From the NCBI RefSeq assembly GCF_902150065.1, contig NC_043987.1:1625386-1689385 (forward strand): a DNA stretch of 64,000 bases, read 5' to 3'. The DNA comes from Myripristis murdjan (Eukaryota). The notes under the pieces were generated by a model that saw only the letters and a program-made list of their open reading frames with translations, did not search any database and was not told the origin of the DNA. Shown in pieces: positions 4,599-47,633 of the stretch (positions are counted from its first letter, which is position 1; each line of letters starts with the position of its first letter). Made by a program: the position numbers and the translations under genes.

Positions 4599-4601
<3 letters not shown>

Positions 4602-4632: not shown

Positions 4633-4637
<5 letters not shown>

Positions 4638-4643
4638 GGAAGC

Positions 4644-8686: not shown

Positions 8687-8736
<50 letters not shown>

Positions 8737-8738
8737 AG

Positions 8739-9381: not shown

Positions 9382-9642
<261 letters not shown>

Positions 9643-16709: not shown

Positions 16710-17079
<370 letters not shown>

Positions 17080-22393: not shown

Positions 22394-22688
22394 TTTTATT
22401 CTCTTCTTTTACATATTTTATATTTTTTTATGTCCTCCTTTGTTTTACATTTTTGTCTTCCTTTGTTTGTACATATTTTACCGTTTCTGTATCTCAGTGT
22501 CTTTTAGCTCCATCTTTTATATATCTTACTGACATTTGTTTTTGCTGCTGCTGTCGTCTGTTTTTCAGTTGATTGCTTGGTTTTATGGTGCAGGATTTGC
22601 ACTTGTTTGAAATTGCCTGTTTTAGTCAGTTGTTTTTTCACTTTATTGCAAAGCACTTTGAGGTACACCCCCTGTATAAAAGGTGATA

Positions 22689-23084: not shown

Positions 23085-23251
23085 ATGACATCCAAGAAGG
23101 CAGGAGACCGAGGGCTGGAGATGGAGGGGCTGATTGGCGCGTCAATCATCCGCATCCCGCCCCACCACTACATCCATGTGCTGGACCAGAACACCAACAT
23201 CGCTCGTGTGGAGATTGGACCTCTCACTTACATCCGCCAGGACAATGAGAG
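23085..23251 (+). CDS. mvp: Major vault protein, first coding exon (a second in-frame ATG at 23121 is an alternative start)
   Basis: ORF 23085-23330 gives ...[37 protein letters not shown], the conserved MVP N-terminus (human [36 protein letters not shown]). Donor AG|gtcagt. A possible acceptor ctgtctgctag at 23078 suggests an upstream non-coding exon. Confidence 0.9.
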
Positions 23252-23719
23252 GTCAGTCGATACAGATGCCTCCTTCAAACAGGAAAGAGGACATTTTGAA
23301 GGGGATCCATTTCAGAAACGTTCACAATAAATTACCGCTTCAAAGTCTCGAGATATTCCTTTGACAGCTGAAGCAGAAATGTGTCCTCACGTCTTCAGGG
23401 CGTTTCCCAACTGAATCAGGAGACCGGTTGTTACATTGTTAAATTATGGATTGGTTTGATTTTTTTTCCACACACATAATTAATCGAACAAAGCAATGTG
23501 GGATCAGCTGTTTCCTTCTGCAGTCAGAAATTTGGAGCAAGGAAGGATGTCTTTCCATGTTCATGTTTTTCCTGTAGTTGAGATCAGATTCTGTCTAAGA
23601 AGTTTGACTCCAGATATTTGCTCCATAACTCAGTGACAAGGTGTGAAAGCCACTTCAGAATAAGAGCGGTCTTTATGGGCTGTACAGGCAGACATTCATT
23701 GGAAAGTTCATGAAGCTCC

Positions 23720-23810
23720 TGTTACTGAGTGCTGGATACTGGCTGGATGCTCCAAATGCTAACTGTTAGCCTCCTGCCACTGAGGTGGACTTCCCCCCAG
23801 CTAACATTCT
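23720..23810 (+). mobile_element. SINE-like element 3' half (MVP intron 1)
   Basis: Sequence ctgttactgagtgctggatactggctggatgctccaaatgctaactgttagcctcctgccactgaggtggacttccccccagctaac. Confidence 0.65.
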
Positions 23811-24152
23811 GAAACATAAATTGTTCAAATTGTTATATAAACAAAGTGTGAGTTTGATGATGTGTAGCAGAATTGAAAATTATCCCCCCCCCAAAAAAAA
23901 TCAGTGGTAGATGACCTATGACAGGCAGGTTTATTTAATTAGATTCTTTTTGATTTAACAAAACACTCTACAAACCCTCTGAACAGAATTCCGCTAATTT
24001 CTTTGCTTTTGTCTTTTTTGTGAATTTGTTGGTAATTTTCTGTTTTCTTGTAGTGCATTTACTAATTTGGGGCTTTGTAAAAATGTGCTCAGCCTATCCG
24101 AGTGCAGATTATGTGACCTGATCCTGCTTCAACCCTCCTTTTCTTTTGTCAG

Positions 24153-24348
24153 AGTGCTGTTTCCTCCGGTTCGTATGACCATGGTGCCGCCGCGTCACTA
24201 CTGTGTGATCGCCAACCCTGTAGCCCGGGACGATAACGGCCAGGTCCTCTTCGACCAATCTGGTCAGGCCAAACTGCGCCATGCCGACCTGGAGATCCGC
24301 CTGGCCCAGGACCCGTTCCCCCTCTACCCAGGAGAGGAGATCAAGCAG
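24153..24348 (+). CDS. mvp: MVP coding exon 2
   Basis: Acceptor ttcttttgtcag|A, phase-2 join giving Arg, and donor CAG|gtttgt. Translation [65 protein letters not shown]. Confidence 0.93.
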
Positions 24349-25332
24349 GTTTGTGGCTTTGCTATGGCACCAACACTCAAACCATCTGAGTGGCTCCATA
24401 TGTATTTCAAAGTTCAAACTGAAGAGAGAGGTAGAAATGAGTTTAAAATGTGTAGAGCTGTAAGTTGTAAAACTATCATTTAAAAAACAACAACAAATAT
24501 CTATCTGTCTATCTAAAAAGATACAGTGTCATCGTCCCTGCCCCTTAGCTTGGGCTTGACCTGTTCAGTTCCTTCAAAATGAGGTTTGATATTAAATGAG
24601 GTTAATTTTATCTTCTTTTATCGTCTTTTAATGTATAGTAATCAGGATGTTGCACCAGCATAAGTCTAGCCAGATGGACACTATCATATAAATGACGCTT
24701 TTGATTTTGCATGAGATGACACTTCTGATCAGGATTTCTTTGCCATTAATGGGGTAAGAAAAGATTTCACATTTTTGGTGCACAGTGGTCCCTCGTTAAT
24801 CGCAGGAGTTACGTTCTAAAAATAACCCGCAATAGGCGAAATCCGCGAAATAGTCAGCTTTATTTTTTACAATTATTCTAGATGTTTTAAGGCTGTAAAA
24901 CCCCTCACTACACACTTTAGGCAAGCTGAACACATTCTGTACTGTACAGGAGACACGGCACGGAGGAGATTGATTGACAATGGTCTACAGTCCCTTAGCC
25001 AATCAGGATGCAGAACACAATGCGCTGTAAAAAAAAAAAAAAAAAAATGCATGCAAAATTGAACAAAAAAAATCCGTGAAACTGCGAGTCCGCAAAAGGT
25101 GAACCGCGTTATAGCGAGGGACAACTGTATTGACAGAAAAATTATGAAAAAACTAGCAAACAGTCGTTAAAAAAAATCCCGATGACCAGAAACTTGTCAC
25201 CAGTACATAAACATCAAGACAGAAAAAGTGGATGGTGATCGTGTCCAGGCAGCAGCAGCCTGTGTGCCCTCCTGCCCTCTTTGCTGCTCCTCCTTTGATT
25301 CATGTATCACATTTCTTGTGTGCCTCTGTCAG

Positions 25333-25456
25333 GATGTGACGCCTCTGCAGATCGTGTACCCAGACACCGCTCTGCGTCTGCAGGCCCTGCTGGACTTCGA
25401 GGAGGAGGGGGGCGTGAAGAGGGTGGCAGGAGATGAGTGGCTCTTCGAAGGGCCGG
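25333..25456 (+). CDS. mvp: MVP coding exon 3
   Basis: Acceptor tgcctctgtcag|GAT and donor G|gtaaaa. Translation [42 protein letters not shown]. Confidence 0.93.
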
Positions 25457-26292
25457 GTAAAACGTCGCCAAAGCGCCTCATTGCCTAACTCTGTGAAAAT
25501 GAATTTGTTTGTATATATTCAGTGATTTTCCCCAAGATTTTGATCCTGTCAAGGTGAAAAAAAAAGCCTCTGAAACGCTTTCAGACCACCACAGGACAGT
25601 AAACCTCTGATAATAAAATAAAACTCTCTCACTGAAGGCCAGACTGGTGTAAAGTTTAAAATATCCTTCACCTATTTAACCTTTTTTTTCTTACCCTCTG
25701 AACAAAATTTGTTTTATTTCTATTTATTTCTATATTTTATATACATTTTAATATCTGTTTTGTTGTAATTTTGTAAAAATTCTCTTGTAACTTATAACAA
25801 TCATGATCATGATAATGATCTTCTTCTTCTTCATCTTCTTCTTCTTCTTCTTCTTCTTCTTCCAAATTTGTTTGGGTAATTTTCGTGTTATTTAGTCTTA
25901 AATATACAATTATAATAATCATAAACACAGTTTTCTTGTAAAAACTATTTTGCTAATTTTCTGACAAGTTTATTCTAGTTTTTAATAATTGTTTTCCAAT
26001 ATTCTGGTTATTTTCTGATAATTTGTTACTAGTTTTGGTACTTTCCTGGTAATTTGCTGGTAATTGTCTTGTAACTAAATTTTAAATACACAGAGAGAGA
26101 AATCAAGTAAATTTGCTTAGGTTTCAAAGTGGTTTGGAAAATAACATTACCTCAGATTCACTGTTTAGCGGTTTAAAATCTTAGTCAGCAACTTCATGAT
26201 TATCAGTGAGTTTTACTTTAATCACAGTCTTGATCTTGTTAGAATTATCGAGTTTTGCAATGAACCATGCCATGCGACCTTTGGCCCCACAG

Positions 26293-26424
26293 GGACCTAC
26301 ATCCCAAGGAAGGAAGTAACAGTGCTGGAGACCATCAAGGCCACTGTGATCAGAGAGAACCAGGCCATCCGGCTGAGGGCCCGCAAGGAGGGTGTGGACA
26401 GAGGAGGGGTCCGCAGAGTCACTG
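26293..26424 (+). CDS. mvp: MVP coding exon 4
   Basis: Acceptor ttggccccacag|GG and donor G|gtacgc. Translation [44 protein letters not shown]. Confidence 0.93.
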
Positions 26425-27189
26425 GTACGCCGGGCCACCCAGCCTCCATGTTGGAGCTCAGGCACCCTCAGACGTTCATTCCAGGAGTCCCACAGCAGAG
26501 AGGAATAGCAGAGTAAAATGAGTGAAAGAGAAGAGAAGGATCCAGTCTTGTTTTCCAAACCAAGGAAAAAATGTGTTTCTGCCATTTCTGCCAAGACGCA
26601 CTATTATGATCACAGTGACAAATACCAACATGGAGTTAGAGATGCACACACGCCCCCACTGCTGCCTATAGTGTTTGCAATTATATTTATTTTTTTGTTG
26701 TTGTTTTTAATGACTAAATGTTCATTTGTAAGCCAGTGAGAAAGCTGTGACTTCACTCCAGTCAAAACAGATGCATAAAGTATTACACTTGTAAACATGA
26801 GTAATAAAGCAAGACTGGCACCAATCAGACTGAAATGATCACAAAATAAACAATAAACAAGTGAATCTAAGATAAGAGTAATACACGCATAAACACACAT
26901 ACAAACACAGAAACATATGAAAAAAATCTCATATTTCTATAATATTTCTATAATGATTTAATAGCGTTGCTGCTGTTGAAAATATGCATTCAGTCTATAT
27001 TGTTGCTTGTTTGCTTTGAGGATTATTGACATGCTCTCTCAACACTGAAAATTCTGCCAATGAATTTTCCCACTGTAAATGAAACTAAACAAATCTTGCC
27101 TCGTTGAACAGCTGAGTCCAGCTGGACTGAGGGAATTCTGTGCTGGGTGCAGCCCTGCTTTTCTTACCTGAATGTGTGTGTTGTTGCAG

Positions 27190-27284
27190 GCGAGGAGTGG
27201 CTGGTCAGGAAGGTGGGAGCCTATCTTCCAGGAGCCCATGAAGAGGTCATTGACATTGTGAATGCTTTCATCCTCACTGACAAG
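27190..27284 (+). CDS. mvp: MVP coding exon 5
   Basis: Acceptor gttgttgcag|GC and donor AAG|gtgact. Translation [31 protein letters not shown]. Confidence 0.93.
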
Positions 27285-27462
27285 GTGACTCAGCGCTTTG
27301 CTTTCTATCTGCTCTGGCTGACAAGGCGGAGCGATACTGTGGAAAGTTAAAAAGTAGACAGTGAAAGAATGAAACAAAGTGACAGTATACCCCAGGCAAT
27401 TTAGAGTGCAGTTATTCTTGTATTTTGTGGATGATATTCAGTGTAAAATTTAAAGGGTTAAT

Positions 27463-27501
<39 letters not shown>

Positions 27502-28075
27502 TGAAGCAAATAGGAAAAAGGCAGATTTTAAGCCAAAACTCTGAATGTGATCTTGAACAGTTTATTTTTGCAGCATCTGTTACCATGGCGATGAAGCCGG
27601 GTCAAAAGAGAGCCGCCTTCATGACACGGCAAACTCTGGCTTTTGACTCAACTTACCTTGCTAACCTGTTAATCTTGCTTCGTAGTACAGCCCTCTGATG
27701 CAAAATGGTCCAAAAAGGGTTGCAACATGTTAAGCTGGCCTGTACTTGGTCATTAATAGATTTTGAAAGATGTCACATTTTATATCCCACCAAAGCTGAC
27801 CCCAATCGCAGTTGGCAGCATACATAAAGGCCCTTTTTTCCTAGTTTGGTACACACAGGAGGAACTGAAGGTTAACATTTGGAGCATCCAGCCAGTATCC
27901 AGCACTCAGTAACAATGAGAGGAAGATAGCACCACTACTGTACTACATAACAGCTGGGGGGAAGTGAAATAATATCATATTTACAGAATAGTTGAAAGAA
28001 GGGCACCCTTTGTTGAGCCGTAGGACTTCCCTCTCATCTCTGTCCTCCCTCCCCATCTCCTCTCCATGTCATCAG

Positions 28076-28312
28076 AATGCGCTGCATGTCCGCGCTCTGC
28101 GCCCCTTTAAGGACAGTGGTGGGCGAGACCGGCGTACGGGGGAGGAGTGGCTCGTCACCATGGCTGACAGGGAGGCCCACATCCCTTCAGTGGCTGAGGA
28201 GGTGGTGGACGTGGTCAGCGTGACCACTCTGAACAGCAGGCAGTACTGCGTGATCCTGGACCCGGTGGGACCCGACGGGAAACCTCAGCTTGGCCAGAAG
28301 AGGGTGGTCAAG
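28076..28312 (+). CDS. mvp: MVP coding exon 6
   Basis: Acceptor ccatgtcatcag|AAT and donor AAG|gtgagg. Translation [79 protein letters not shown]. Confidence 0.93.
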
Positions 28313-30013
28313 GTGAGGAGGACCCATCCCACAGGCTGGCTGTTCACTGATCACTAAAAGTACGGACGGACAAAAATGACACCAAAACTAAATAAAACGA
28401 AAAGTGAATTTTTGTTGACAAAACTATGACAAAATATCATGACATTAGAGACAAAAATGCCACAAATGAACCAATGAAAACAGAACTCCTGAGCTCAGTT
28501 TAGCAAGGAAGACATATGCAAACTTTACTTTTGATATTAAGAATAAAAACAAAAACTAGAAACAAAAGGCAAGAAGCTGTGTTGAGGAATGCACATCAAT
28601 CTGTGTGTACAGGTCACTGCCAAATCATGTAATGAGGAAATCACAGAGAAAAAATGTGCACAATAACTGAGTAGAATTAAATTAAAAGTTTCATTCTCGT
28701 CGACTAAAACCACTGCAGTTCTTGTCAGCTAAGACCAGACAAAAACTAACAAAATTCAAATGACTAAAATGTGAATAAAACTAAAATGCATTTTAGTCAA
28801 ATGAGTAAAGCTGCAACACCTCACAATACATCCTACACCACAGCTCAACATATTATACACTGAAAAGACCCTACATAAGGTACAGTTATCATATTACAAA
28901 AATCAACTTCAAGTTCAAGTTTCAAGTTTATTTCCTGTCTGCCAAAAATACACAGTTTAAGTACTTTTAACACGTGCAGACACAAAGCAGCATACAATAT
29001 GAACACTCACATATTTCAAAAATCACGTAAAATAGATAATAATAAATGTTGTAAGGTAAAATGCAAAATTCAGATAAAATAAATAGGTTAGTAAAAGAAG
29101 TAAAATCAGAAGAGCAAATGGTGTAAAAGTGTCTGCTTTAAAAAAAACGGACCACCTCAGGGTAAGAATTGTCTCGGGAACTGTTACAAACCATGTGACA
29201 AGGAACCCTCAAACAGCTTTCAGCTCATAAATGATGTTGACCTGAACAATGTAGGTTATTCAGATAGTTTTTAGCCTCCAGTGTCCATGTAAAAAGCATG
29301 CAATCCATGAGGCCTGAACTTTCAGAATTAACTCTGAGTGAATTCCAGGAGGTGTTTTTGGCCCGACAGGCGTCTTGTACGTTCTGGCAGAACATTTCCC
29401 CATTCGCCAGCTTTCAGTGGGGCGGGAAGCACAGATGGCTAGACTTGACCCACGTGTGTAGTGCAAAGCATTATTGTTATTTGAGTGTACAATAGTATAA
29501 TCAGAATCTTATGAACTAGATAGATAGATAGATAGATAGATACTTTATTCATCCCGAAGGAAATTCACAGTTTTTCAGCAGTATCCACAGATTACAAGAT
29601 TAAATAAAAATAAATAAATAAATGAGATCTAAGTACAACACACTAGAGATCTAGGTACAACAGTGTGCAAATAACAATGTGCAAAAAAACGTGTGCATAG
29701 GTGTATAAAATGTGCATAGAAAATAAATAAAATGTGCATGTAGGTCAATGTGCAAATTTAGAAGAAATATACAGTATACACAGATGATAAATAGCAGTAA
29801 GCAATATAAACACTATAAACAAGGGATATAAAAAAAAAAACTAGTCCTATTAAGTCCTAGCCCCAGTGACAGCCAGTCACTAACAGTCAGACACCCAGTA
29901 TGATTAAAGAATTAGCTCCCCCAAAAATTAATTTTGCCACTACCAAATTAGCCCTCATGTCAGAAACATCTCTAATTTTCTTTTTCCTTCTTCCTCTCTC
30001 TCTCGGTTGGTCA

Positions 30014-30139
30014 GGGTGAGCGCTCCTTCTTCCTGCAGCCAGGAGAGCACCTGGAGCATGGCATCCAGGACGTGTACGTGCTGTCAGAGGAGGAGGGCCT
30101 GGTGCTGAGGGCTGTGGAAGCCTTCAACGACACCGAGCA
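30014..30139 (+). CDS. mvp: MVP coding exon 7
   Basis: Acceptor ctcggttggtcag|GGT and donor CAG|gtgagg. Translation [42 protein letters not shown]. It is too short to appear in the >=60 aa ORF track and was found by homology walking. Confidence 0.9.
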
Positions 30140-30810
30140 GGTGAGGGCAAGTCAGCTCAGGACAACAGCAGGAACACTGTTTCCATGACTTTGTTTTTGG
30201 AAACACTGCTCCCATTGCAGTCCATGATTTGTTCACTTACAGAAAATGCCGCTTAACCTTATAAAACATAAAATGTGGAATAATAAAGTTAGGAATCAAA
30301 GGAAGTCACTCTTTGACAGAATATGTTCAGCCTGACCAACAAGATGGTTAGACTGAACATAGTCCATGTTTGTGTGAGACCTACCATGTTTCTTTGCATC
30401 CAACGTAGAACTGACAGCTACTAACAAATCACTAACAGTACTACTACACTAATGCACTACCTTGCAGACAAACGGCATAGTGAAAAGGGGTTCAGCCAGT
30501 TTTTAAAAATGTGATATTATTTCACTTCCATGTAGGTGGTGCTATGTTCTTCTCATCATTACTGAGTGCTGGATACTGGCTGGATCTGCCAAATGCTAAC
30601 TTTTAGCCTCCTCCCATTGAAGTGGACTTCCCCCCGCTAGATTAAAAAAAAAAATAAAATAACCGCCTTTATCAACAGATGTCAGATGCCAAGACACTAA
30701 TTATATGTGCTGCATCTGTCCTAGGGAGAATTTGATGGTCACTTTAAGGTTTTTGACAACAGATGTGTACCAGTAGACATTTTTCACAGCAGCCATTTTG
30801 AGTTGAAATA

Positions 30811-30986
30811 GCAGGGTAAACACACGTGTCGCTAATAATAATAATTAAGATTCCATTCAACTCAGTTCAGGTCTGACAGAGCCAGGGTCCTGCTCTTGTG
30901 TATGCTGGCTGACCAGAAAGGCTCTGAACACTTAAACAGAACGGGACTGTAATTAATATCATTAGTAACACCTGTATTTACCCTGC
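30811..30986. mobile_element. MITE family with TIR GCAGGGTAAACACnnGTGTTACTAATGA, copy 1
   Basis: Termini gcagggtaaacacacgtgtcgctaataat ... attagtaacacctgtatttaccctgc. Related copies at 34132-34490 (with an internal insertion), about 48790-48962 and about 55417-55580. Confidence 0.65.
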
Positions 30987-31077
30987 TAGTTCATGTCAGA
31001 CTGTTAGCTTACTGTAAGTCTCCTGCCGCTGAGGTGGACCTCCCCCCCAGCTAACATTCTTAAAAATAAAAAATGAA

Positions 31078-31540
31078 ATATGAAATACCGTATTTCAACA
31101 ATTAATCGCCCGGCTGCAAATAGCCGCCGGGTTCTTATAAACGCCTGGGGTCTGCACCCATTTTGCTTATTAAACGCCCACCCGAATAACCGCCGGGGCG
31201 ATTATTTGCATTATATTGAGGTAACCCAAAATAAGGCTATTCACCTTATTTTTGCAGCAGTAAACAGTTATCCGCACAATAACTGTGCAGCACTTCCGTT
31301 TTCTGTCAAAATAAGAGAGCTAGCTAACGTTAGAAAAAAAGGGTGCACCGTAATCTTAAATTGCCCGACTGTAAATATGTTGGACAGTAACTGTCATCAC
31401 GATAATGGCCTGGTGCAGGTCTGTGTAAAAATAAATAAAGGCCTGCAGCGAATAGCCGCCTGGTTCTTTTAAACGCCTGGGGTCCAAGTTGATTTTGCGT
31501 ATTAAACGCCCGGGCGATTAATTGGTGAAATACGGTAAAT
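31078..31540. mobile_element. MITE (about 460 bp) with about 30-bp TIRs AAATACCGTATTTCAACAATTAATCGCCCGG
   Basis: Left terminus tgaaataccgtatttcaacaattaatcgcccgg. Right terminus cccgggcgattaattggtgaaatacggtaaat. Internal direct repeats gccgccgggttctt(a/t)taaacgcctggggtc...attaaacgccc occur twice. Confidence 0.65.
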
Positions 31541-32249
31541 AATTCTCTCCAATGGGAATGGGTGAACTATCCCTTTAAGTGACTACTTTTGCTGATTAAA
31601 CCTGCTAGGGTGGTGATGTTAAAAATATTGGCTGACTGCTAACATTATAGGTCAACATTATGGAGCTTCTTTGGTCCAAAGACCACTTTTGGCCCCTGAT
31701 TTCAATCTGCTTTGTCTTTGGGGTATGATGTCAATCAAATGTTGCCACTAAGTAAACAAAGCAAAGATTAATGAGTTGACTCACTCTAACCCTGCAACCA
31801 GAAAAAATGTAGCTGCAAATCCTTATAATTGCAGACATGTCAGACACCTGTTAGACTTTGGCAGAGCGAAACAGGTAGAGGAGGTGGCCTGGGGAAAAGA
31901 AAAAGGATGCAGAAGGAAGGAGAGGAGGTTAGTGGCAGAGGAACTTTTTATTCAGTTTATTTTAGGTTTTATGCAATCTCAGATGTTTTCTGGTTTTCTT
32001 TACTGTGCTCACTCTTTGTCCAGGTTCTCTGTGGAGCAGCATGATAGAAATAGAAAGGCACGCAGGAGAGGGAGGGGCTGCTAACAAAGCAGGCCAAACA
32101 AATTTGCAGTCTTAACTGGTTTAGATGGGTAGTCTAGTACAACCGGTTGATAACAGAGGAAGGCTGTGGTGTTTAGACACACACACGCTGCGCTCACTAC
32201 ACACACACACACACACACATGCACACAAATAATAAAACATATTACAGCT

Positions 32250-33507
32250 CACTGATTCTTGAGAATTTGGATAAATCATGTCCCACTAAGAAAAATGCTA
32301 TTTCTGTTGGAAATTTGCAACATTTTAATGAATAAAAAGAATCAAAGGCATAATCAGGGGGTCCTTTGCACATTTGTAAGGTTCTTTTATAGGTTTATTT
32401 TTAATTTGTATTAATTTAATGATTATATGTTGGCCCATGGCCTACAAAACCAGTTGTCCTCGGATAGGAGATAATCATTTCAACTTGATTTAAAACAACA
32501 AAAAGTAATAATTTCATTGAATAATATCTTTACCACATGAACAAACGATGGGTTTTGAACAATATTTACTATTATTTTGTGGTTGCTCAAAATGTGTCCC
32601 AGATATTCGTCACCACCGTCAGATATATATTTAAAAAATAATAATAAAAAAACTACAAGGTCAATTACATTCCTGAGGATCCCTTTTCAAACCTTCAGCT
32701 CTACTGCATGCTTCAAGACCACTCAGGCTCCTGGAAGTTTTCTATTTTCTCTTAAATCTCTTCATATTTTGGGACACTGCTACTGTCACAACCATAACAT
32801 GTCAACACCGTCACTTCTGTATAAAAAATATTAGATTAGATTATGGAATAAATGTATACTTTTTAAGAAGAGGTCTGATGCAGGTAGAAACAGGGCGAAA
32901 ACAAGCTGGCTAATGTGAACAACTCATGCTGATCATGTGAAAGAGCAGGTTTTTGTCTCCACCGTCAGACGTCACCACCGTCAGGTTTTCTGTGTGACGG
33001 TGATGACTGAAGTCTGAAAAATGCTTAGAACAGTGCTCAGGATTGTTATTTTTTGTACCAAATAGTTAAATAAAGTTGTTAAGCAAGAAGCCATTGACTT
33101 GAGTGGTATAAATTTTGGAAATGTATGTTTTAATGAGGCGACTGTCACCACCGTCAGATTAGTGCCACCACCGTCAGAGGCAGTTAAATTGGTTTTAAAT
33201 GAATATGTTTACAATATGTTTCTTTGGTGCTGTTGAGTTATTAAAGTAATAGTCTCTTTAATACAAAAATCTGTTTTTCAAATTAAAAAAAAAACATTAC
33301 GGTGACGGTATTGACAAAAACAAAGTAGCCTAATAACTGGAAAAACCGATTTTATGAAAAAAATGCAAAATGAGGAGGTTGCACCGGTACATTGCTGAAC
33401 AGCCAAGACCTTGGTCTATAATGATATACCTTCAGATTTTGTAATTTAACGCACTTTTTTTTTTTCAAAATTAAAACCTGTTTTATCCAAATTCCCAAGA
33501 ATCAGTG
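32250..33507 (+). mobile_element. TIR DNA transposon copy B (1258 bp) in MVP intron 7, 4-bp duplication AGCT
   Basis: Same TIRs and internal organisation as 21118-22393. Flanked by AGCT|...|AGCT. Same orientation as copy A. Confidence 0.8.
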
Positions 33508-34131
33508 AGCTACTCTAGTAGAAGGGACTCTTGGGACCTTCAACTGACAACATTCCAGATCTAACCTTTACCATCAGCACTTCATTTCTAACTTAAACCT
33601 CCACCACAACCCACATCTAACCTTAAAGGGATATTTAGAATTTATTGACCCAAGTTTGTATGACTTAGTCGCTCCTATTTATATTGATACATGGATAATA
33701 TCTCCACAGACGACTCCTGCAGTCAGAGTTGTGGCTAGTTGTGGGATTGAACAGTTAGCTAAATCAACAGCATGTAACTGCTAATATTTTGAGACACAAA
33801 TAACAGGTTATAAATGTTTAAAGAGACAGTTAATGCATTTTGAAAAAAAAAAAAAATTCTCTTACCCCCAGCTGTTTTGTAGGACAGTAGTGGTGCTATC
33901 TTCTTCTCATCATTACTGAGTGCTGGATACTGTTTGGAACTATTAGCCTCCTGTCATTGAAGTGGACTTTTTAAAAAAATAATCGTCTTTATCAACATAT
34001 ATCAGATGCCAAGACACTAATTACAGACACTAGATCTGTCCTTGGGAGCATTTGATGGTCACTTTAAGGTTTTTGGCAACAGATGTGTATCAGTAGACCT
34101 TTTTTCACAGTGGCCATTTTGAGTTGAAATA

Positions 34132-34490
34132 GCAGGGTAAACACAGGTGTTACTAATGATATTAATTAAGGGTCCATTCAGTTCAGTTCAGGTCTAAAGG
34201 TGTGTTCAGACCGAAGATGAGGCAGGTTTGAACACGGTGCGATTACATACAAAGTCAATTCAACGACTGGGATTTGCGGCGGGCGACGCCAATAACATGA
34301 ATTTTCCTGTTGCAAATGAAGCGAACATGCGAAACTCGCGTCATTCACATATCTGCATCAGTCGAAATATTTCAACTTGAGTGAAAAATTCGCGGCCAGG
34401 GTCCTGTTCTTGTGCGTGCTCGCTCAGTGGTACACTTAAACGGAACGTGACTGCATTCAGTATCATTAGCAACATTTGTGTTTACCCTGC
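34132..34490. mobile_element. Same MITE family, copy 2 (carrying an internal insertion of about 180 bp)
   Basis: Termini gcagggtaaacacaggtgttactaatgat ... cattagcaacatttgtgtttaccctgc. About 40 bp of 5' flank is shared with copy 1, so the unit may be longer. Confidence 0.55.
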
Positions 34491-35198
34491 TTTTTCAAAG
34501 GCTTGAAAAGCCCTGCATTAGCTGATCTTAGTGACTACTATTCATCTAGCTACCTGCTCACTTGAAAAAGCAGCCATAACTCCATGCATCAAGGAAGTCC
34601 TACCAAATTGTGTTCATAAATCCAAATTATTATATTATTAAGCTCTAACGCTGAGCCTAAGATAAAATTAATCCATAACCTTTAAGTGCCCCATGTGAAA
34701 ACTATCCAAAGCATACTGATTATTAATACCACAGAACTTTAATGGAGTAGAATGGACATTTGCCATGGTCATTTGGCTGGTACAGAATAAAATGACAGTT
34801 ACAGTTCTTTGCTATGGTGGCCATAAAGTGTGTCCCACTTGCTTGAGAACCGTTCAGTGCACCATCCTCCTTTCCTGACTTGGCTAACCCCTTCTACCCC
34901 TACTCTGTTCTCCTCCTCCTCTCCCCTTCCTTCCTGCTTCTCTCACCTTCCCTTCCCTGTGTCCTGACATCATGCGTGTTCATAATTGCACCTCCATCCC
35001 TTCCATTCTCCTCCCTTTATGGCTCAATCAAAAAACTGTCCCTATCCTTCTGCCATTCAGTGCCTCTCCCCAGTCCCCTCTCCTCCATGCCCCGCTCTCC
35101 TTTCTCCTCCTCCTCCTCCTCCACCCTTGCTCCAGTGCATCGCCACGTTAACCCTTCTCTCCCTCCTCCTCCTCTCTCTCCCCCGCTCTCTTTGCCAG

Positions 35199-35417
35199 CA
35201 AGAGGAGGAGGAAGAGGAAGAGGAGGAGGAGCTGATGGAGGAGAGGGCCAAGCGTTCACGGAGGAGTGGTGTCCTCCGTCGGCCTGGAGATCGCTGGATG
35301 TTGCGTGGGCCGATTGAGTATGTCCCCCCTGCCACCGTGGAGGTGGTGCTGAAACGCCAGGCCATCCCATTGGACGAGAATGAGGGCATTTACGTCCGGG
35401 ACATTAAGACAGGAAAG
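35199..35417 (+). CDS. mvp: MVP coding exon 8 (begins with a poly-Glu tract encoded by a GAG/GAA repeat)
   Basis: Acceptor ctctttgccag|CAA and donor AAG|gtgagt. Translation [73 protein letters not shown]. The exact acceptor inside the GAG repeat is uncertain by a few codons. Confidence 0.85.
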
Positions 35418-36675: not shown

Positions 36676-36911
36676 GTCCGTGCGGTGATTGGTCATACCT
36701 ACATGCTGACCCACGACGAGGAGCTGTGGGAGAAAGAACTGCCCCAGAACGTGGAGGCCCTCCTGGCTTCCCCGCACGACCCGCTGGCCGACCGCTCGGA
36801 CCGCAGCAGGACGGCGGTGAGCAAGCCCAGGGACAAGACCAGGGTGGTCGCCTACCGGGTGCCTCACAACGCAGCCGTCCAAGTCTACGACTACAGGGAG
36901 AAGAGAGCCAG
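36676..36911 (+). CDS. mvp: MVP coding exon 9
   Basis: Acceptor gcgctgcag|GTC and donor AG|gtacga. Translation [78 protein letters not shown](R). Confidence 0.93.
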
Positions 36912-38134: not shown

Positions 38135-38332
38135 GGTGGTGTTTGGGCCAGAGATGGTGATGCTGGGGCCAGACGAGCAGTTCACTGTCCTGTCACTGTC
38201 CGGGGACAAACCCAAGAGGGCCAACGTGATCAAGGCCATCTGCCTCCTGCTGGGGCCGGACTTCTTCACCGACATCATCACCATCGAGACAGCCGACCAC
38301 GCCCGGCTGCAGCTGCAGCTGTCCTACAACTG
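38135..38332 (+). CDS. mvp: MVP coding exon 10
   Basis: Acceptor tcttgtcgacag|G and donor TG|gtaaag. Translation [65 protein letters not shown](W). Confidence 0.93.
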
Positions 38333-38609
38333 GTAAAGCATGGCTGTCAGTCAAGCCACCACACACAGCTGGAAGGGGGGGAAAATCTGCCTCACTTACT
38401 GTTAGAAGTTCATTTAAGACATTCTACAAATCATTGGGAGCGTCTATGTAATTCAGTGTGCAGCACTTATTTCAGTTACATCTCAGTGACATGGCTTTCC
38501 CAGTTATTTCTACAGTATCCTAAACCAAAATACACTGTGGTGGGTGGCATCAAAGTAAAGTACATTATTCATCTGAAGATGTTCATTTAGTTTCCCATTT
38601 TCTATATAT

Positions 38610-39425
38610 GAAGTTAGGATGTTCGTAGATACAGACTATACAGTTTCTTGTTTACCTTGACATGTTTTGACTGCTGTGTGTCCTACAGTCTTCCTCAGAA
38701 GTTTCACATGATATTACCATGACATTTCCTGTCAGCTGTAGGTAGGACAGCCATGCCCCCTGCTGTGCAACAGTGTCATCAGGATGGCGTCCCATGTATG
38801 TAGTGGCTGGTTCCCCTGTCCTTTCCATATTTCTGTCACCTCTTTGATCCAACACTGGTATCTGTTGATGTGATGATCTTGGCTCCCTCCTAGTCCATAA
38901 CATGGTTTTCCCTTTTACAACTGTCGGAGACCTACATAGAGGAAGCATGCTGATTATTTGGCACGTAGGAAAAAAGAATGTGAGAAAGAAACATCTGGAG
39001 TGCACACCTGAGCAACAAAACCAAAAGCAGATCAGGAAGTTGGAAATCAGCAGTTTCAGACAATTGCAAAAGTGAAAAATATGTCTTGGAGAGGAAGCCA
39101 AGATCATCACATCTGAAAGGAACAGGTACCAGCACTGGTTCAAGGAAACAGGCCCAGAGAACTGTAAACCAGGATTAGGGTGCCTACCAGCTACCATGCA
39201 TCTGGACACTGTCTCTGATGTGGCTGTCAGACAGCAGGGGGCATGGTTGTCTTAACAGGTCAGGTAGGGCAACCAGACCTGTGTTAAACAGCTGACAGGA
39301 AATGTCACAGTAACATCATGAGACACTTGTGAAGAAGACTGCAGCACACACAGCAGTCAAAACATGTCAAGGTGAACAAAGAAACACCACGTCCAAATCT
39401 AAGAACATCCTCACCTGAAGTACAA
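38610..39425. repeat. Foldback / long imperfect inverted duplication (arms of about 330 bp at roughly 75-80% identity, about 120 bp loop) in MVP intron 10
   Basis: The reverse complement of 39090-39420 aligns with 38613-38900, for example aggatgttc...ccttgacatgttttgactgctgtgtg at both ends and gccaagatcatcacatc / gatgtgatgatcttggctcc near the centre. The 185-aa minus ORF 38652-39209 is an artefact of it. Confidence 0.7.
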
Positions 39426-39643
39426 GGTGTCTATAAAGTCTCTTTACAATTTAACACTTTTATTACAAAAGCAAATGAATAGACAAATCTGTGGAAATTA
39501 TTACAAAATGAGGAGTAGATATTGAAGTTTTTTTTGCCTCATTTAATACACTCCTATATGGGCACCATTAGTTGCACGAAGCACATCAAGACAGACAGTA
39601 CTCCATTTCTTGCCATGTTCGATGTAGCAGAGCCTCATCAATG

Positions 39644-42494
39644 CACTGGCGGTTCTGGGGAGGGGCCAGCAGGGGCCAGTGCCCCCGTAACACTGTGCCC
39701 CCCCCTCCGAACAAAGATTTTACATTGTGATGCGGCTTTCACATAGCGTGCGGTTTGGGCCGCGCTCTGCGCTGGGTACAGCGCACATAGATCTATGACG
39801 GCGCACACTTGCGCAGAGCAGCGTGCACACGCGGGCCATTTCTTCTTGTGGTTGTTGGCTCTGTACAGGACACTTTAGAGATGCTGTGTCAAACATAGGG
39901 GCATCAGGGGGACGGTGCTGTTATTTCCTATTACTGACAAAGAAATGAGACAAATGAACTGGAGGGAAAACTGGTTCACTGCAGCCACAAAGAATAGAAG
40001 ATATGTTACTTTTTAATTTTTTTTATTTATACATTTATTCAATTTTTTTTTTTTCTTATCGTTGGGCAACAGGTACAGTAGCCCTAAATGGATCTTGAAT
40101 TGGAGCATTTTAAATTAAAAGCTGAAACTGAAAAAACAAAATTGGAAAGGACAAGACACACACACACACACACACACACACACCCCAGGTCCCGTCCCCG
40201 TATCAAGGAGCAGGCGCAGGCGGTATGGTATTAACGGCAACGACCGCAGTCTTCATGTCGGTGACCCTGACCAGAAGCCACGGAGCAGTTCTTGGCACAT
40301 CATGGTGGCGCAGTCTGGACAACAGCACGGTCCTTGCGACCAGATGTTCAGCAGGCCAATGGACCGTCTCCATGACAACAGTGATGCAAGCATTGGCTCC
40401 TCCTAGCAGAAGAGAGCGCCTGCATCCGTCAGCATCACCAGTCTGTGGACCCTCATAGTCCAGTAATTTTAGCCCAAAATTGGGTCAACCTAGGACAAAT
40501 AACAAGAGAAGCAAATTGCAAGAGTTTTTTTCTCTTGCAATTTGTCCTAGGTTTTTTCCTAAAATGACTGGACTAATAGTCTCTGCGCAGGCTGCACCGA
40601 CCACCGGAGACCGGCCTGAGGGGCGCACCTGCTGTGCAGCTAGCAGAGCCAGCTGGAGAGCCCGCCTGGGAAAGGCGAGACTCGCTTGGTCTTTGCTCAG
40701 TCTGAGAGCAGATCCAGCAGATGTGGACACCCCCCCCCCCGCTGAACTTGGAGGGCGGACACACACTGCCGAGCGGCCAGCCCTATACAGACAGCCTAAC
40801 CTGGTCTCAGACCAGCCGAAGACCAACTCCAGCATGTGCGACACACACCTGCTGCCGAGCCGGCTTTTTATGGCCTCTGCTGCTCCGGCCAGTGACGTCA
40901 CCAGTCAACCAGATGATGAGGACGCACGCGCAGCATAGACAACACCTGGGACAGTGCTCAGTACTTTACAGTCACCTGCACAGATACTTGTTTGTGACGG
41001 ACGGCATGACGTCACAATGGCTACAGCTCTACATTCTGCATTGTTGATTGTTTTTTGTTTGTGTCCACGGACACTGAGTATGCAGGTAACACATCCGCTC
41101 AGTTAAAACAGGCTATGGTGCTAGAGTTTGAAATTTGGTCTCAGCCTCAGTTGATGCTGAAATGACGATGAAATAGTCTGTGTGCGATTAAGATGAACAT
41201 TGTTATGAGGTGAGACAAACAACTGGAACTGCAGAGTGTATGGACCTTTTGTTTTGCCACTTGTGCTCCTTGCTTGAGTTTGTACTGTTTCCAATGATGT
41301 GCAGTGTGTTTCCTGTCATTGTGTGTGTTGTTGTTGAGCCTTGCTTTGTTCTAGCACCTCCAGCAGGCCAAAATGTTGTAGCAGCTGTAGTGGTGGTTGA
41401 AATTTTCTCTTGGTGTGTTTTTATCAGGCGGTAACTGGAACCAAGTTCCATAATCTGAATGCAGCTCTGTTTACACAAAGGCGTTCATCATGAAGGGCAC
41501 GCATGCACAGCGTGCACGTATGTGGCGCTGGTTGCTACGCGACTGAAACAGACGCTAGGAAGTAGTTTTCCGTTCTGGCGCAATTTTTCTCTGGTGGACA
41601 GCACAGCAGCTTCGGATGCACCGTGTAAAGAGGCTAATACATTTTTTAATTTATGAATTAGCTGAACTAATGCTTCTTAATAAATTAAGTTACATGAACG
41701 AAGGCTGTATTTTTTTCTCATTTCATGTGATTTCACCTGTTACCTGTTGTGTGTGTGACTTCACATGGAATTTTATAATAAATGTATGACTATACTGCAT
41801 TGTCTTTGCAAGAGTAGTGCATATCTAATGATGTCATTCATCTAGATTTCTAAAAATAAACGCAGACCAGTGCGCTCTTGCGCTCCCTGATCACATACAC
41901 AATGAATGGCTGAGCCAGCCGCGGTCTGTGCCGTGCGCGTGCTCTGTGAAAGCCGCTTCAGAGCGTTGCACCTGGAAACGGCGGTCAGTTTTGTTGATCT
42001 ACGGTGAAAACAGCGAGCTCGAAAAGTCAACCACCTGATGAGAGGCAGTCAGAAGCAAGAAGCGACTACCATGAACAATATTTTATTGTTACAAGGTAAC
42101 AATAAGCTTTTAGAGTGTAAATATGATGATGATTTATTGATGAAGATGATAAGAAGACAGTGGTGTAATGAAGATGTGATGATGATGTTGATGAAACTGC
42201 CTGATAAAGATTTTAGAAGCAGGAGTTTGTACTAAGTGAGGAGTTTGTCTGTACTAAGGTTACACTGAAAAATAGGATGTCTCCATTGTTTCTGTCTCTT
42301 ATACTTGTGTCTCAAATGTGATATTTTGAACCATTCAGTTTGGTTACAATGGGTTATCACTGGTTTTATTGGGAAAAAAATCAGATATAATTTTGAGTCT
42401 TTGTCTTTTTTGCCCCGGGTTGAATGTGCCCCTCTGACAAAACCCCTGGCCCCAGCCAGGGCCCTTCAGTAAAATTGGTCTAGAACCGCCACTG
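39644..42494. mobile_element. hAT-like element (2.85 kb) with a perfect 8-bp target-site duplication, CATCAATG, in MVP intron 10. It has long subterminal inverted repeats and a GC-rich core.
   Basis: Termini CACTGGCGGTTCTGG (39644) and CTAGAACCGCCACTG (ends 42494). Identical CATCAATG at 39636-39643 and 42495-42502. Subterminal inverted repeats gcggctttcaca(t/g)agc at about 39745 and about 41950 (reverse). Core 40560-41050 is CpG-rich with two TGACGTCA palindromes. No transposase ORF. Confidence 0.7.
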
Positions 42495-42765
42495 CATCAA
42501 TGGTGGCAATGGCATCAGTGATCTTTTGCTGAAATACACAAATGCAATATGATTAAAAACTTTGATAACCACTGAGTACATAGAACAAATCTGATGAACA
42601 TATCTCATCAATTGCTTTTGTAATAGATTTTTTTAATTTGTAAAGAGACTTTGTGGACACCCTGTACTTGCTACTTGATGAATCACAGGGGTACTGGATT
42701 GAAGCGTGGCGACCCCTCTTCTTCTCTGTTTTCCTTTATCCGTCTTCCTGTCTCACTCTCTTCAG

Positions 42766-42910
42766 GCACTTTGACGTCAAGACTCGGGCAGATGCTGCTC
42801 AGGCAGCGTCTCTGTTTTCAGTGCCCGACTTTGTGGGAGACGCCTGTAAAGCCATTGCTTCCCGGGTCAGAGGTGCTGTCGCCTCAGTGCAGTTTGACGA
42901 TTTCCACAAG
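42766..42910 (+). CDS. mvp: MVP coding exon 11
   Basis: Acceptor tctcactctcttcag|G and donor AAG|gttggt. Translation [48 protein letters not shown]. The preceding 4.4 kb intron contains a foldback and a 2.85 kb hAT-like element. Confidence 0.93.
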
Positions 42911-43994
42911 GTTGGTCTTGACCAGTGAAGATTCAGTGCTTCACAGACTTTGCCATACCAAATTCCCCGAACCACAACCAGCTATGATAAGATTTTGTCA
43001 TTAAGAACCCTATATGAGAGGACATAAGTGGCATTTTCCAAAGTGGGAGGGTCAGGGACTTTGATTAAGTCTGCAAGGAATTTCAGAAGTAACAGGAACT
43101 TTCACAATCACTTAACAGGAATATTGCACTTGTAGTTTTCAACTTGTTTCACATTTTAATCACACTAGACAAGTTTCAGCTTAACAGGAGCTATAACCAT
43201 CTGATCGATAAGATAATGATAATAAGATAATGTTGATGTTACTTTTATTTGTTGTTTTGCTTTAAGTTGTCTTGTGTTGTTTATCTGTAACTTTTATGTC
43301 TGTCATGGACGCTGCTTTTCTTGGCCAGGTCTTCTTTGTAAAAGAGATCTTGTATTGTGTCTTTACACTACACTTAATCTTGGTCTAAGATCCCAGTTGC
43401 CCCTTGGTTAACTGTTTTTTCACACTTCCAACTTAGAATGAGGGATATCCCCACTCTTAGCCCAGGGCTTACTATCCCTGAATTTTTTGGGGTTAAGGTC
43501 TGTAGCAGGAATAGGGCTTAGAATCAAAGTAAGAACAAAAGCAACAGAATATTTTTGTAAAAGCAATAGGATATTTGTTATCCAATCAAAACTGTGCTAC
43601 AAGTGTTGTGAAGACATCAAACCTGGTCTTTGATTTTCAAATGTGAATCCTGAACCCAGGGCTAAGTGTTAGGCCTTGGTTAATAAGCACTAGTGGGAAT
43701 CAAGGCTAAGCTAAGATCTTGGGTGCAGTTAGTTGAGGGCTTAGTTAGCTAAGGGCTAAGGAACCTAAGTGTGATAAGAGCTAATGAGGCTTTTTTTGTT
43801 AAATGAAAAAGAGAAAATAAAAATAAAGACTGTCAAATGGTATTATTAAACCAATAATATGGTATTATTAAACAGTTTAGGTCATGGTGGTACTCTGACA
43901 CAGTTATGGAAAGTCATAGAAAAGTCATGGAGTTATACCTCAGGGACACAGTGGGAACCCTGGTCTAAGACCTTTCCTGTTGGTTTGTGGCTAG

Positions 43995-44206
43995 AACTCC
44001 AACCGGATTATCTGCTCGGCGGTGTTTGGCTTTGATGAGAAGCTGGCTGTTCGGCCGAGCCTGCGCTTCAACCAGAACAACCTGGTGATCAGCAGCGTGG
44101 ACATCCAGTCTGTGGAGCCTGTAGACCAGAGGACCCGGGACGCCTTGCAGAAGAGCGTCCAGCTCGCCATCGAGATCACCACTAACTCCCAGGAGGCTGC
44201 AGCACG
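43995..44206 (+). CDS. mvp: MVP coding exon 12
   Basis: Acceptor ggtttgtggctag|AAC, a weakish polypyrimidine tract. Donor CG|gtctga. Translation [70 protein letters not shown](R). Confidence 0.88.
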
Positions 44207-44635
44207 GTCTGAGTCTTACACTCACACACACACTCATACACACATACAGCTAGCAGTGTACTGGTAAATAGAAAATTGAGTTACTGCAGGTCCTGAAAAA
44301 GGCTGAAAAGGCCTTTTTTATTTTTTACTAATTTCTCAGGAATTTTTGGGGCGTTATTTGATAATTTGCTCATTTCCCACATGTTTTTGAAAGGAACAGA
44401 GTGAATCATAGGTTCACAGGTTGAAAAGGGTTACTTGAGCTTAAAATTTTTTTTTTGATTGGTTGTATTGTGGCAAGGCCATGGGCACTGCACCTGATCT
44501 GCCTAGTGGGCCCAACCACTCTGATTTCCTTCCTTATATTAAGATTTGGGAAGTTTGGGAAGCCAGTATATTGTTTTGTTTTTCGTGCCTTTTCTTATTA
44601 TTCTGCCTTTATTTTTTTAACTTATATGTGTGCAG

Positions 44636-44752
44636 TCATGAGGCGGAGCGGCTGGAGCAGGAGGCTCGTGGGAAGCTGGAGAGGCAGCGCATCACTGACC
44701 AGGCTGAGGCTGAAAGAGCCAGAAAGGAACTGCTGGAGCTGGAGGCTCTCAG
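44636..44752 (+). CDS. mvp: MVP coding exon 13 (start of the coiled-coil/cap-helix region)
   Basis: Acceptor ttatatgtgtgcag|T and donor AG|gtgagt. Translation [38 protein letters not shown]. Confidence 0.92.
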
Positions 44753-45312
44753 GTGAGTTAGAGGCTCGCTGCTTTACTGGACATGCAGCAGTAATATGTG
44801 CTGGCAAGCAGGTTTATTTGTATCACAGCTTTTGTAGACAGTGTAATTCAAAATGCTTTACATTGGGTTAAAAAAGAAATGATATAAAATAACAAAAAAA
44901 CAAAAGTAATAAACCATGACAACATACAAAAAATTGGAGGATCCTAGGACAGACAAATGACTTAGTTGTAGGCAACGCTGAATGTGTACGTTTTTGGAGT
45001 TTCACATGGTAAAAAGCAGGCCAAAAATGATTTGGAATCAAAAAGTGTTTTAAAATCAGTTCTTTGAACTACTGGGAGTAGGGACTTGAGAATTGGATAT
45101 GTTCGCATTTTCAAATTTTTGTCAGTACTCTGGCAGTGGCATCGCACAAGCAATTCAATTTGTAGATGAATGTGAAATAGTGCAACTGCAGTTGCAGGAG
45201 CATTAACACGCTATAAAGGTCACTCACAGCAGTTCAGCAAAGAGCTGATGGAAATCCTAAGTCCCGTGTGTGTGTGTGTGTGTGTCTGTGTGTCTGTCTG
45301 TGTGTGTGTCAG

Positions 45313-45439
45313 TGCTGCAGTGGAGAGCACAGGAGCTGCCAAGGCTGAGGCCCAGTCCCGGGCGGAGGCGGCTCGAATTCAGGGTGAAGCAGCAGTCCAC
45401 GAGGCCAAACTCAAGTCTGAAGCACAGAGGATTGAGGCT
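45313..45439 (+). CDS. mvp: MVP coding exon 14
   Basis: Acceptor (GT)n-gtgtcag|T, with a GT microsatellite abutting the splice site. Donor GCT|gtatgt. Translation (S)[42 protein letters not shown]. Confidence 0.92.
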
Positions 45440-46501
45440 GTATGTACCCCCACCCCAGTGAAGATCACTTTATACTTCTGTGTCAAAATATCACAGCAGG
45501 CTCCTGTGCCTCTGACATAGCATACAGAGGCTGCAACCACATCTTCCCTATCTAAAAATGTAACTGCAGGATCTCTGATGAGTCTGCCACATCGCATTGT
45601 ACTTGTTCTGTGTTTTGCTGATTGATTCCCACTGAATGATGACAACATGATGCTAGTTGTCATCTCTCTTCACCCGCATGGAACTGACAAGATTTGTGGA
45701 TCGGTGCTAATGTTGCCAACTCATCCACAAATTTATGATTCATGATTTTAGTAGGAATGATCATTTTTTTGTATCATAATTCACATTTTCACAGTAAAAT
45801 GATGATAATGTGATTTGGCCAGGGCGTCTCTGCAGCACCCTTATGCTTTATTTACAACAATATTTTCACATACATTTCATCTTTACCAAAAATTTGCAGC
45901 TCCTGTAATTTGACTATGGTATTTGGCTATATTTGATTTTGATAATATTTCAATTAATGTCCAGCCCTGCTTTGGACACCACTACTGTGTCTGAGGGTGG
46001 ACTGAGAATGCAAAAAATATTGCCTCTGTTTTTATCTGTGCTTTATTAACCTAGAATTAATAAAGTTTTGACACTGCTATCAAGTGTTTCAGGAATTAAC
46101 TCAAAGGGCGCAAATTCTCTAACACTAAACTACTGTATAAATGCTCACACCAGCGTACACTACTACAGCGTAGTTACAGCAGTGTAGAAGTATAATTTGA
46201 CCTTTGTTGGGGAAAAACAAGGGAGCTCTGTGTGTGTGTTCCTGTACTTGCAACGTAGTGAGGACCAGAACACATTTCTAACCAACACAGTGGGAAAGTA
46301 AGACATTTTGGCCTATCCTCGCATATACAAACGAAAACTGTGTCTTATTGGTCTAGGTTAGGGTTAAGGGTAGAATTAGGTTAAGGTAAGGGTTTTAGGT
46401 TAGCAATGTGCTGGTTATGGTTCTGATTAGGGAAAGGCTGTAGAAGGCTATAGAGAATGAATGGAGGTCAATGTAATGTCCTCACAAAGATAGAAAACCT
46501 A

Positions 46502-46503
<2 letters not shown>

Positions 46504-46538
<35 letters not shown>
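46504..46538. repeat. (GT)n microsatellite forming the pyrimidine-tract position of MVP exon 15 acceptor
   Basis: (GT)18 immediately followed by gcag|GAAGCAGAG. Confidence 0.9.
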
Positions 46539-46541
<3 letters not shown>

Positions 46542-46730
46542 GAAGCAGAGCTACAGCGGCTGGCCAAGGCTCGAGAGCAGGAGCTGGGCTATAAGAAAGA
46601 GATGGACCGTCTGGAGGTGGAGAAGCAGGAGCGGCTGGCCCAGATAGAGAGCCAGCGTTTTAGCCAGCTGGTGGAGAGTCTGGGCAGCGACACCTTGAAG
46701 GAGATGGCCAGAGCTGGACCAGAGCTTCAG
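46542..46730 (+). CDS. mvp: MVP coding exon 15
   Basis: Acceptor (GT)19-gcag|GAA and donor CAG|gtaata. Translation EAELQRLAKAREQELGYKKEMDRLEVEKQERLAQIESQRFSQLVESLGSDTLKEMARAGPELQ. Confidence 0.92.
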
Positions 46731-47513
46731 GTAATACCCCTCCTCTGTTATGCAGGGAGCTGAGAGAAATATAGTAGACATTTCACCCACTACTTTACTG
46801 CAGTCACACGACTAAATTCCACTGCAGTACTTCTGAGAGCAAAATGGTGTCCAAACCTATTCATTTGTGCATTCACACCATAAAGATGAAAATTAGCATC
46901 AGCGTGACTCTCTCATATGACATCATGAGAGTCACAGAAATGCAGTTCCATTTTCAGCAAAATAAATGCCCGACTAACAAAAAGTGGCCGGGTCCAAATT
47001 CAGTTGACATGGAAAGTCAACTGAATTTGGACCAGTTGGACAGAGAGAGGGTAGACTAACTACAAAAGACATCAGACAAAGTTCAGCCAAGGGGCTTGCA
47101 CAGAGAATGCCAAAAGAATTCAAATTAACGCTTCTCATGATGCCATTGTGCCAATGAAAAACATTTGGACAAATGATTCAGTGAAGTCAAGCTCATTCTA
47201 GCTCAGTTCTAGGGAGTTAGCTTATAGCCTGTTGTTAGCCTAACTAGCTAACAACTGGTTAGCCAAATCCCATCAACAGAACGCAAAAGACACCTCAGCT
47301 TGGCTCAGCTTGGAAGGAAGGCATTTGTAGGGGATGAAACTCTGAAAATGGTGTTGGTGGTTGTGGATTGGTGGAGGATCATCTTCCTGCATGCACTAAG
47401 ATCTGCAGATTTGCTCCAGACCTCTCAGACACCCCGTTTTTGTATATTTACTTCAAGGGCTCAGGCACTGCCACCACCCAGTCTTATGGTACCTCTCCCT
47501 CCCAACTCCCCAG

Positions 47514-47633
47514 GTCAAACTGCTGCAGGCTCTGGGGTTGAAGTCCACCCTCATTACAGATGGATCATCACCAATCAACCTCTTCACCACAGCCAATGGC
47601 CTTCTGGGGGCCCTGCCTGGCCAGGGCCAGTGA
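47514..47633 (+). CDS. mvp: MVP terminal coding exon (stop TGA 47631-47633)
   Basis: Acceptor ctcccaactccccag|GTC. Translation [39 protein letters not shown], which matches human [32 protein letters not shown]. The exon is too short for the ORF track. All 16 exons total 2640 nt, giving an 879-aa protein in frame throughout. Confidence 0.9.

Follow-up and report, generated by a model that had tools for sequence, protein, structure and literature searches.

The subject of this analysis is a window of 64,000 nucleotides from the genome of the pinecone soldierfish Myripristis murdjan, a holocentrid teleost (contig NC_043987.1 of the RefSeq assembly GCF_902150065.1, positions 1,625,386 to 1,689,385), and in particular the gene in it which encodes major vault protein (MVP). 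Positions 23085-47633 of the window, on the + strand, almost certainly represent a single, intact, protein-coding mvp gene. Its 16 coding exons splice to an open reading frame (ORF) of 2640 nt that encodes 879 amino acids and ends with one terminal stop codon (TGA). All 15 introns run from GT to AG, with lengths from 429 to 5058 bp, and neither a frameshift nor an internal stop codon interrupts the 2640 nt, all 30 splice sites being canonical. An mvp gene with exactly this product is already annotated in RefSeq.

The gene was rebuilt independently of an exon list that an earlier note had drawn up from this DNA. A human MVP sequence, which on later checking matched the alignment fragments from the PDB, served as guide in a tblastn search of the window and produced 16 collinear high-scoring segment pairs (HSPs) on the + strand, spanning 23145 to 47618. 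In every gap between HSPs all GT/AG pairs that kept the frame open were enumerated and the best pair was taken, and the DNA surrounding exon 8, the start codon and the stop codon was read directly. The earlier note had described a complete MVP gene of 16 coding exons and 879 residues with its junctions in frame, and the rebuild arrived at identical coordinates, exon count, protein length and C-terminus.

Several lines of evidence identify the product. A protein collection search followed by string comparison showed that it equals RefSeq XP_029913507.1, "major vault protein [Myripristis murdjan]", at 879 of 879 residues; because the two are identical, the window is the mvp locus of the M. murdjan assembly. 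Pfam profiles found Vault (PF01505) in four stretches (217 bits, 1.6e-65), Vault_2 (PF17794) in two stretches (131 bits), Vault_3 (PF17795, 127 bits), Vault_4 (PF17796, 82 bits) and, after the repeats, the SPFH-like shoulder MVP_shoulder (PF11978), in which residues 551-669 matched positions 1-118 of the 118-position profile (175 bits, 4.7e-52). The curated cut-offs of these families are 23-29 bits, so that all MVP domain scores lie far above them, and the E-values range between 1e-23 and 1e-65. In the PDB, the MVP chains of human (893 aa) and rat (861 aa) were matched at E = 0, and residues 21-875 aligned to residues 7-853 of human MVP with only three internal indel regions. Identity to human MVP is 69.8% over 873 columns. 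The putative cap-helix to cap-ring portion aligned to human MVP without gaps from about residue 655 onward. Identity to many other teleost MVPs was 88-94%. The E = 0 matches and the complete identity to an annotated protein go well past anything that chance would produce. The assignment to MVP in the earlier note is thus borne out by the end-to-end alignment with solved MVPs and the exact RefSeq match, and the repeat domains and cap-helix that it had described as kept would indeed be retained, judging from the four Vault families and the gap-free alignment of the cap-helix region.

Some genes of the 16p11.2 interval, fam57b among them, are still duplicated in teleosts (PMC3484866), and the locus might in principle be a decaying duplicate, that is, a pseudogene or a paralogue without function that dates from the genome duplication of teleosts. 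No evidence for such decay was found at the mvp locus. Against it stand the open 2640 nt with its full set of canonical splice sites, the close similarity to MVPs of distant teleosts and the roughly 70% identity to human MVP, as well as the fact that, among the matches listed, only one RefSeq-named M. murdjan MVP occurred (XP_029913507.1), the other entries being models of the same locus. We consider this explanation barely credible, and a pseudogene was rejected on the grounds of the intact ORF, the canonical splice sites and the strong conservation across species.

The coding exons of the intact mvp gene, all on the + strand, are arranged as follows. Exon 1 (23085-23251) encodes residues 1-56 and ends at the donor GAG/gtcagt (the slash marks the junction); an in-frame TAG lies directly before the ATG at 23085, and a second in-frame ATG occurs at 23121. 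Exon 2 (24153-24348; residues 56-121) is bounded by the acceptor ttttgtcag/ and the donor CAG/gtttgt. Exons 3 (25333-25456; residues 122-163), 4 (26293-26424; 163-207), 5 (27190-27284; 207-238) and 6 (28076-28312; 239-317) were each placed from a tblastn HSP, GT/AG signals and splicing, as were exons 9 (36676-36911; 433-511) and 10 (38135-38332; 511-577). Between these two groups lie exon 7 (30015-30140; 318-359), which ends in ...AFNDTEQ at the donor CAG/gtgagg, and exon 8 (35199-35417; 360-432), which follows the acceptor ctctttgccag/ and a long pyrimidine tract and begins with an acidic run succeeded by the basic cluster RAKRSRRS. Exon 11 (42766-42910; 577-625) encodes part of the Pfam shoulder domain, and exon 12 (43995-44206; 626-696; acceptor tag/, donor ACG/gtctga) passes from the end of the shoulder to the start of the cap-helix, which continues through exons 13 (44636-44752; 696-735) and 14 (45313-45439; 735-777; donor GCT/gtatgt). 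Exon 15 (46542-46730; 778-840) covers the last part of the cap-helix and runs on into the cap-ring, and exon 16 (47514-47633) encodes residues 841-879 and the TGA stop.

Several observations weigh against this model in its details. The junctions are predicted from consensus signals, reading frame and the conservation of the protein across species; that a correctly spliced transcript is made would be favoured indirectly, by the canonical splice sites and the match to the RefSeq protein. The ATG at 23085 has a weak Kozak context (ttctagATGa), and that at 23121 a strong one (ctggagATGg). Seven UniProt entries from the same species and locus, of 833-874 aa and taken to be derived from Ensembl, differ from the RefSeq protein in four places. 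At the N-terminus they start from 23121 (MEGLIG...) or use other 5' exons; exon 4 is skipped after read-through of exon 3; near the poly-Glu run one model uses an acceptor at 35217 (AG at 35215-35216) inside the repeat array, giving TEQ/EEEEELMEE, while others have small gaps on both sides; and at the C-terminus one model splices from a donor that overlaps the stop to an exon near 48010, adding IMTASTNQTVQ and ending in ...GQGQIMTASTNQTVQ. The strong donor-like sequence in question, CA/GTGAGG (47630-47635), overlaps the TGA stop codon at 47631-47633. Additional 3' exons, near 48000 and 48060, occur in other UniProt isoforms of M. murdjan.

These observations allow a reading in which the gene is MVP and its main product differs from the 879-residue protein, whether through the start at 23121 (867 aa), an acceptor inside the GAG array or a splice from the stop-overlapping donor. 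The isoforms in UniProt include every such variant, the Kozak context is better at the downstream ATG, the donor-like sequence is present at the stop, and each GAG of the array offers an in-frame AG. The comparison with 113 aligned teleost MVPs speaks for the longer N-terminus, however. A stretch of 16-20 residues precedes IIRIPP in 87 of the 113, at least 83 of them have the N-terminal extension, that being the number with an MSKKG-like start motif, and the column aligned to Met13 holds methionine in only 39, with F, V, S, L and other residues in the rest. As this N-terminal peptide (MSKKGGNRGPE) is conserved among teleosts, the start at 23085, which is also the choice of RefSeq, is favoured; it is possible that both starts are used through leaky scanning. 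A long pyrimidine tract accompanies the acceptor at 35198, but no AG within the purine-only array has one (pyrimidine score 0-3), and the full length of the acidic loop is conserved across teleosts. Several of the alternative models are implausible in themselves, reading through exon 3 and losing exon 4 or containing junctions that could not be placed by eye on canonical GT/AG signals, which suggests that some of them are artefacts of protein-to-genome alignment. We therefore think it unlikely that the main product departs from the 879-residue protein, and the residual uncertainty is one of isoform detail, not of gene identity.

In several other teleosts, the X1/X2 RefSeq isoform pairs of Amphiprion, Oreochromis, Stegastes and Xiphias (P0035/P0043, P0032/P0040, P0039/P0047 and P0019/P0018) differ by one Q at about the place where the M. 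murdjan gene has its exon 7/8 junction. This is the pattern expected of a NAGNAG tandem acceptor. Such an acceptor was considered for exon 8 of M. murdjan and rejected, the sequence there being CAG/CAAGAG with the next AG out of frame.

Exon 8 begins with the codons CAA (GAG)3 GAA GAG GAA (GAG)4 CTG ATG GAG GAG, and the part at 35202-35231 (+ strand) forms an imperfect GAG/GAA trinucleotide array that encodes ten consecutive glutamates (E10; TRF, 10 copies, 85% matches). Two GAA codons break the array, leaving four units as the longest pure run of GAG. Alignment puts the acidic-then-basic insertion to which this run belongs (E10...RAKRSRRS) in repeat R7, probably within the loop that would join strands beta2 and beta3. 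In the crystal study of repeats R1-R7, variability is greatest in the beta2-beta3 loop, which in R7 is partly disordered in all crystal forms; R7 is also the only one of these repeats without lateral packing contacts (PMC2752026). Among 35 diverse, full-length eukaryotic MVP representatives that we aligned, most have no insertion at the R7 site, and several unrelated lineages carry charged insertions of their own; because these insertions are separate, the site is, so far as the alignment indicates, an indel hot spot across eukaryotic MVPs.

One could interpret E10 as a recent, species-specific microsatellite expansion, or as an error of the assembly, that might have consequences for function or polymorphism. 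It falls at the high end of the teleost values, for which the median pure run is 6 and only 7 of the 113 proteins reach 10 or more; it is encoded by a trinucleotide array; and among closely related cichlid MVPs the run varies from 6 to 8. Against this, the whole loop segment from VEAF to GVL measures 35 aa in M. murdjan, next to a teleost median of 34 and a range of 28-41, so that the purity of the run differs and the length of the loop does not. Comparable runs occur in Seriola (E9), Pempheris (E10) and Anabas (E10), and the two GAA interruptions, which leave no pure GAG run longer than four units, should dampen slippage. An expansion or error of this kind is accordingly rated as decidedly unlikely. 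The interruptions argue for modest instability of the repeat. The cichlid variation shows that the run changes on short timescales.

All teleost loops displayed in the alignment are acidic and continue into a near-invariant basic cluster, RAKRSRRSG. The poly-Glu run is, by this comparison, part of an acidic loop found throughout teleosts and not a feature of the species, with run purity differing and loop length ordinary. The earlier note had spoken of a poly-Glu expansion; the GAG/GAA-encoded run at the start of exon 8 is present as it described, and the word expansion holds relative to mammals only, the loop being of normal length among teleosts. It is conceivable, and in our view highly doubtful, that the teleost-specific charged loop of R7 acts as a functional surface patch (for binding of cations or partners, for phosphorylation, or as a motif resembling a nuclear localization signal), with an acidic part that varies within populations and tunes the surface charge of the vault. 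The conservation of the loop's basic half is the sole observation that speaks for such a function.

The C-terminus presents a similar case. In M. murdjan the protein ends with (GQ)2, encoded by the tandem GGCCAG GGCCAG at 47619-47630, and nearly all of the 113 teleost MVPs have the same type of ending, with the number of GQ units varying from zero to five or more. In the 35 eukaryotic representatives, the conserved ...NGL(L/I)G motif is followed by short, unrelated tails, and against these the long human tail is the outlier. Since teleosts, diverse eukaryotes and rat (861 aa) all lack a long tail, the short ending is, as the alignments have it, the normal state of MVP and not a truncation. The ending reported in the earlier note, and the absence of the approximately 40-residue human tail, were both correct; their presentation as a special feature or loss did not hold, since such endings are usual in teleosts and the tail is mostly absent from rat as well.

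The layout of the protein follows that of the family, with N-terminal beta-repeat domains, an SPFH-like shoulder, a long cap-helix and a cap-ring segment. Rat MVP has nine N-terminal repeats, R1-R9, and the fish protein has the repeat domains of the same family. In the vault shell, the wall of the barrel is built from the repeats, with the shoulder as a hinge and the cap-helices joined in a coiled-coil bundle (PMC3595041, PMC13347060, PMC2752026). By homology, 78 copies of the fish protein would self-assemble into a barrel-shaped vault shell, 39 in each half, with N-termini that would meet at the waist and cap-helices that would come together at the caps in a coiled coil; association with vault RNA, PARP4 and TEP1 would be expected on the same basis. 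At the gathering threshold, an Rfam scan of the 64 kb window gave no match to vault RNA, to an intronic snoRNA or to other families. The absence of vault RNA is expected, since the vault RNA genes of human are not known to be linked to MVP.

Mammalian MVPs, represented by the human protein (893 aa, e.g., PDB 11dr) and the rat protein (861 aa; PDB 4V60, 4HL8, 7PKR), are about 70% identical to that of M. murdjan and have the same domain order. The human MVP gene has fewer coding exons than the fish gene. The proteins differ in length at both ends and in three loop regions: the fish MVP carries a 14-residue N-terminal extension relative to mammals, its acidic/basic loop in R7 exceeds the human one by about 21 residues (approximately 30 versus 9 residues at the site), and its loops in R8 and the shoulder are shorter. 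These last, small indels align to two regions of rat MVP listed as unobserved in the crystal structure, namely residues 429-448 (R8) and 608-620 (shoulder) (PMC3595041). Unlike the human protein, the fish MVP lacks the C-terminal tail of about 36-40 residues; rat MVP also lacks most of it, and its residues 846-861 are unobserved in the crystal (PMC3595041).

Upstream of mvp, at a distance of about 11 kb, lies tlcd3ba (approximately 4644-12167, + strand), a TLC-domain homologue of FAM57B. A tblastn comparison of the window with "TLC domain containing 3Ba isoform X2" of M. murdjan yielded six matches of exon size that are 88-100% identical. Human FAM57B and MVP both lie within the 16p11.2 interval (PMC3484866), and since FAM57B/TLCD3B and MVP share this copy-number variant interval in human, the adjacency of tlcd3ba and mvp is what one would expect of this chromosomal region. 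Long ORFs within the introns and beside the gene (38652-39209 on the minus strand, 40480-40938, 40485-40901 minus, 40721-41047, 31080-31472, 21455-21790 and 10263-10688 minus) matched no family in Pfam scans, and scans of the ORFs in the large introns 7 and 10 gave no sign of a nested gene. ARAGORN found no tRNA in the window. Downstream of mvp, + strand ORF pieces at 51978-52184 (…LRWEKPWFPGALVGATTLLF) and about 55830-55960 (…QQQRFHEICGNLVKTQRRVVGWWKRLCALKEEKP) may be exons of another + strand gene and bear a resemblance to the RETREG/FAM134 family; the ORFs at 51978-52184 and 55800-56063 matched no Pfam family, and no homology search was made with them.

The DNA of the window is AT-rich (approximately 37-47% GC) and contains many microsatellites, and several interspersed repeats lie in and around mvp. 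A dispersed repeat of about 1.2 kb occurs as two direct copies, at 21175-22402 and 32323-33516, that are 92-97% identical; the MVP start codon follows about 0.7 kb after the end of the first, and the second is situated in intron 7. Its ORFs gave no Pfam match, and it is probably a non-autonomous transposable element. A second, shorter element of about 100-225 nt is present in both orientations, its copies being 62-97% identical (7536-7760, 9711-9828, 17455-17679, 23673-23790, 27871-27971, 30510-30627, 33864-33981 and 63661-63778), and falls within MVP introns 1, 5 and 7 and within the span of tlcd3ba. It looks like a short interspersed nuclear element (SINE) or a miniature inverted-repeat transposable element (MITE); ARAGORN detected no tRNA-like head on it. 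In intron 10, inverted repeats of 92 nt (38648-38739 and 39288-39379; 89% complementary) enclose 548 bp, and the pair looks like the MITE-like remnant of a small DNA transposon; the ORF across it had no Pfam match. Long compound microsatellites of the (AC)n/(AT)n type, together with periodic arrays of 8 to 12 nt, occupy 16689-17130, 1015-1240, 4583-4990 and 5324-5655, in the region between tlcd3ba and mvp and around the tlcd3ba exons. Tracts of (GT)n/(TG)n abut the acceptors of MVP exons 14 and 15 (45266-45309 and 46503-46538).

In summary, the reconstruction by hand from raw sequence arrived at precisely the gene that is annotated, and so usefully validates the first reading. As a minor point, the coding repeats, GAG and GGCCAG, may vary in length among individuals. 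The closest comparisons for the protein are its teleost orthologues, with identities of 94% for Seriola dumerili, 93% for Trachinotus anak and for Lates japonicus, and 91% for Polymixia lowei. These proteins have in common a length of about 875-885 aa, an N-terminal extension of the MSKKGGNRGPE type, an acidic loop followed by RAKRSRRSG, and an ending of the PGQGQ type. M. murdjan differs from them in starting with MTSKK instead of MSKK, in carrying an uninterrupted run of ten glutamates where the median is six, and in ending with two GQ units only, compared with as many as five or more elsewhere. Because the extension at the N-terminus, the acidic loop and the short C-terminal ending all recur in other teleosts, they are, on the evidence of these alignments, traits of the teleost lineage and not peculiarities of this locus.

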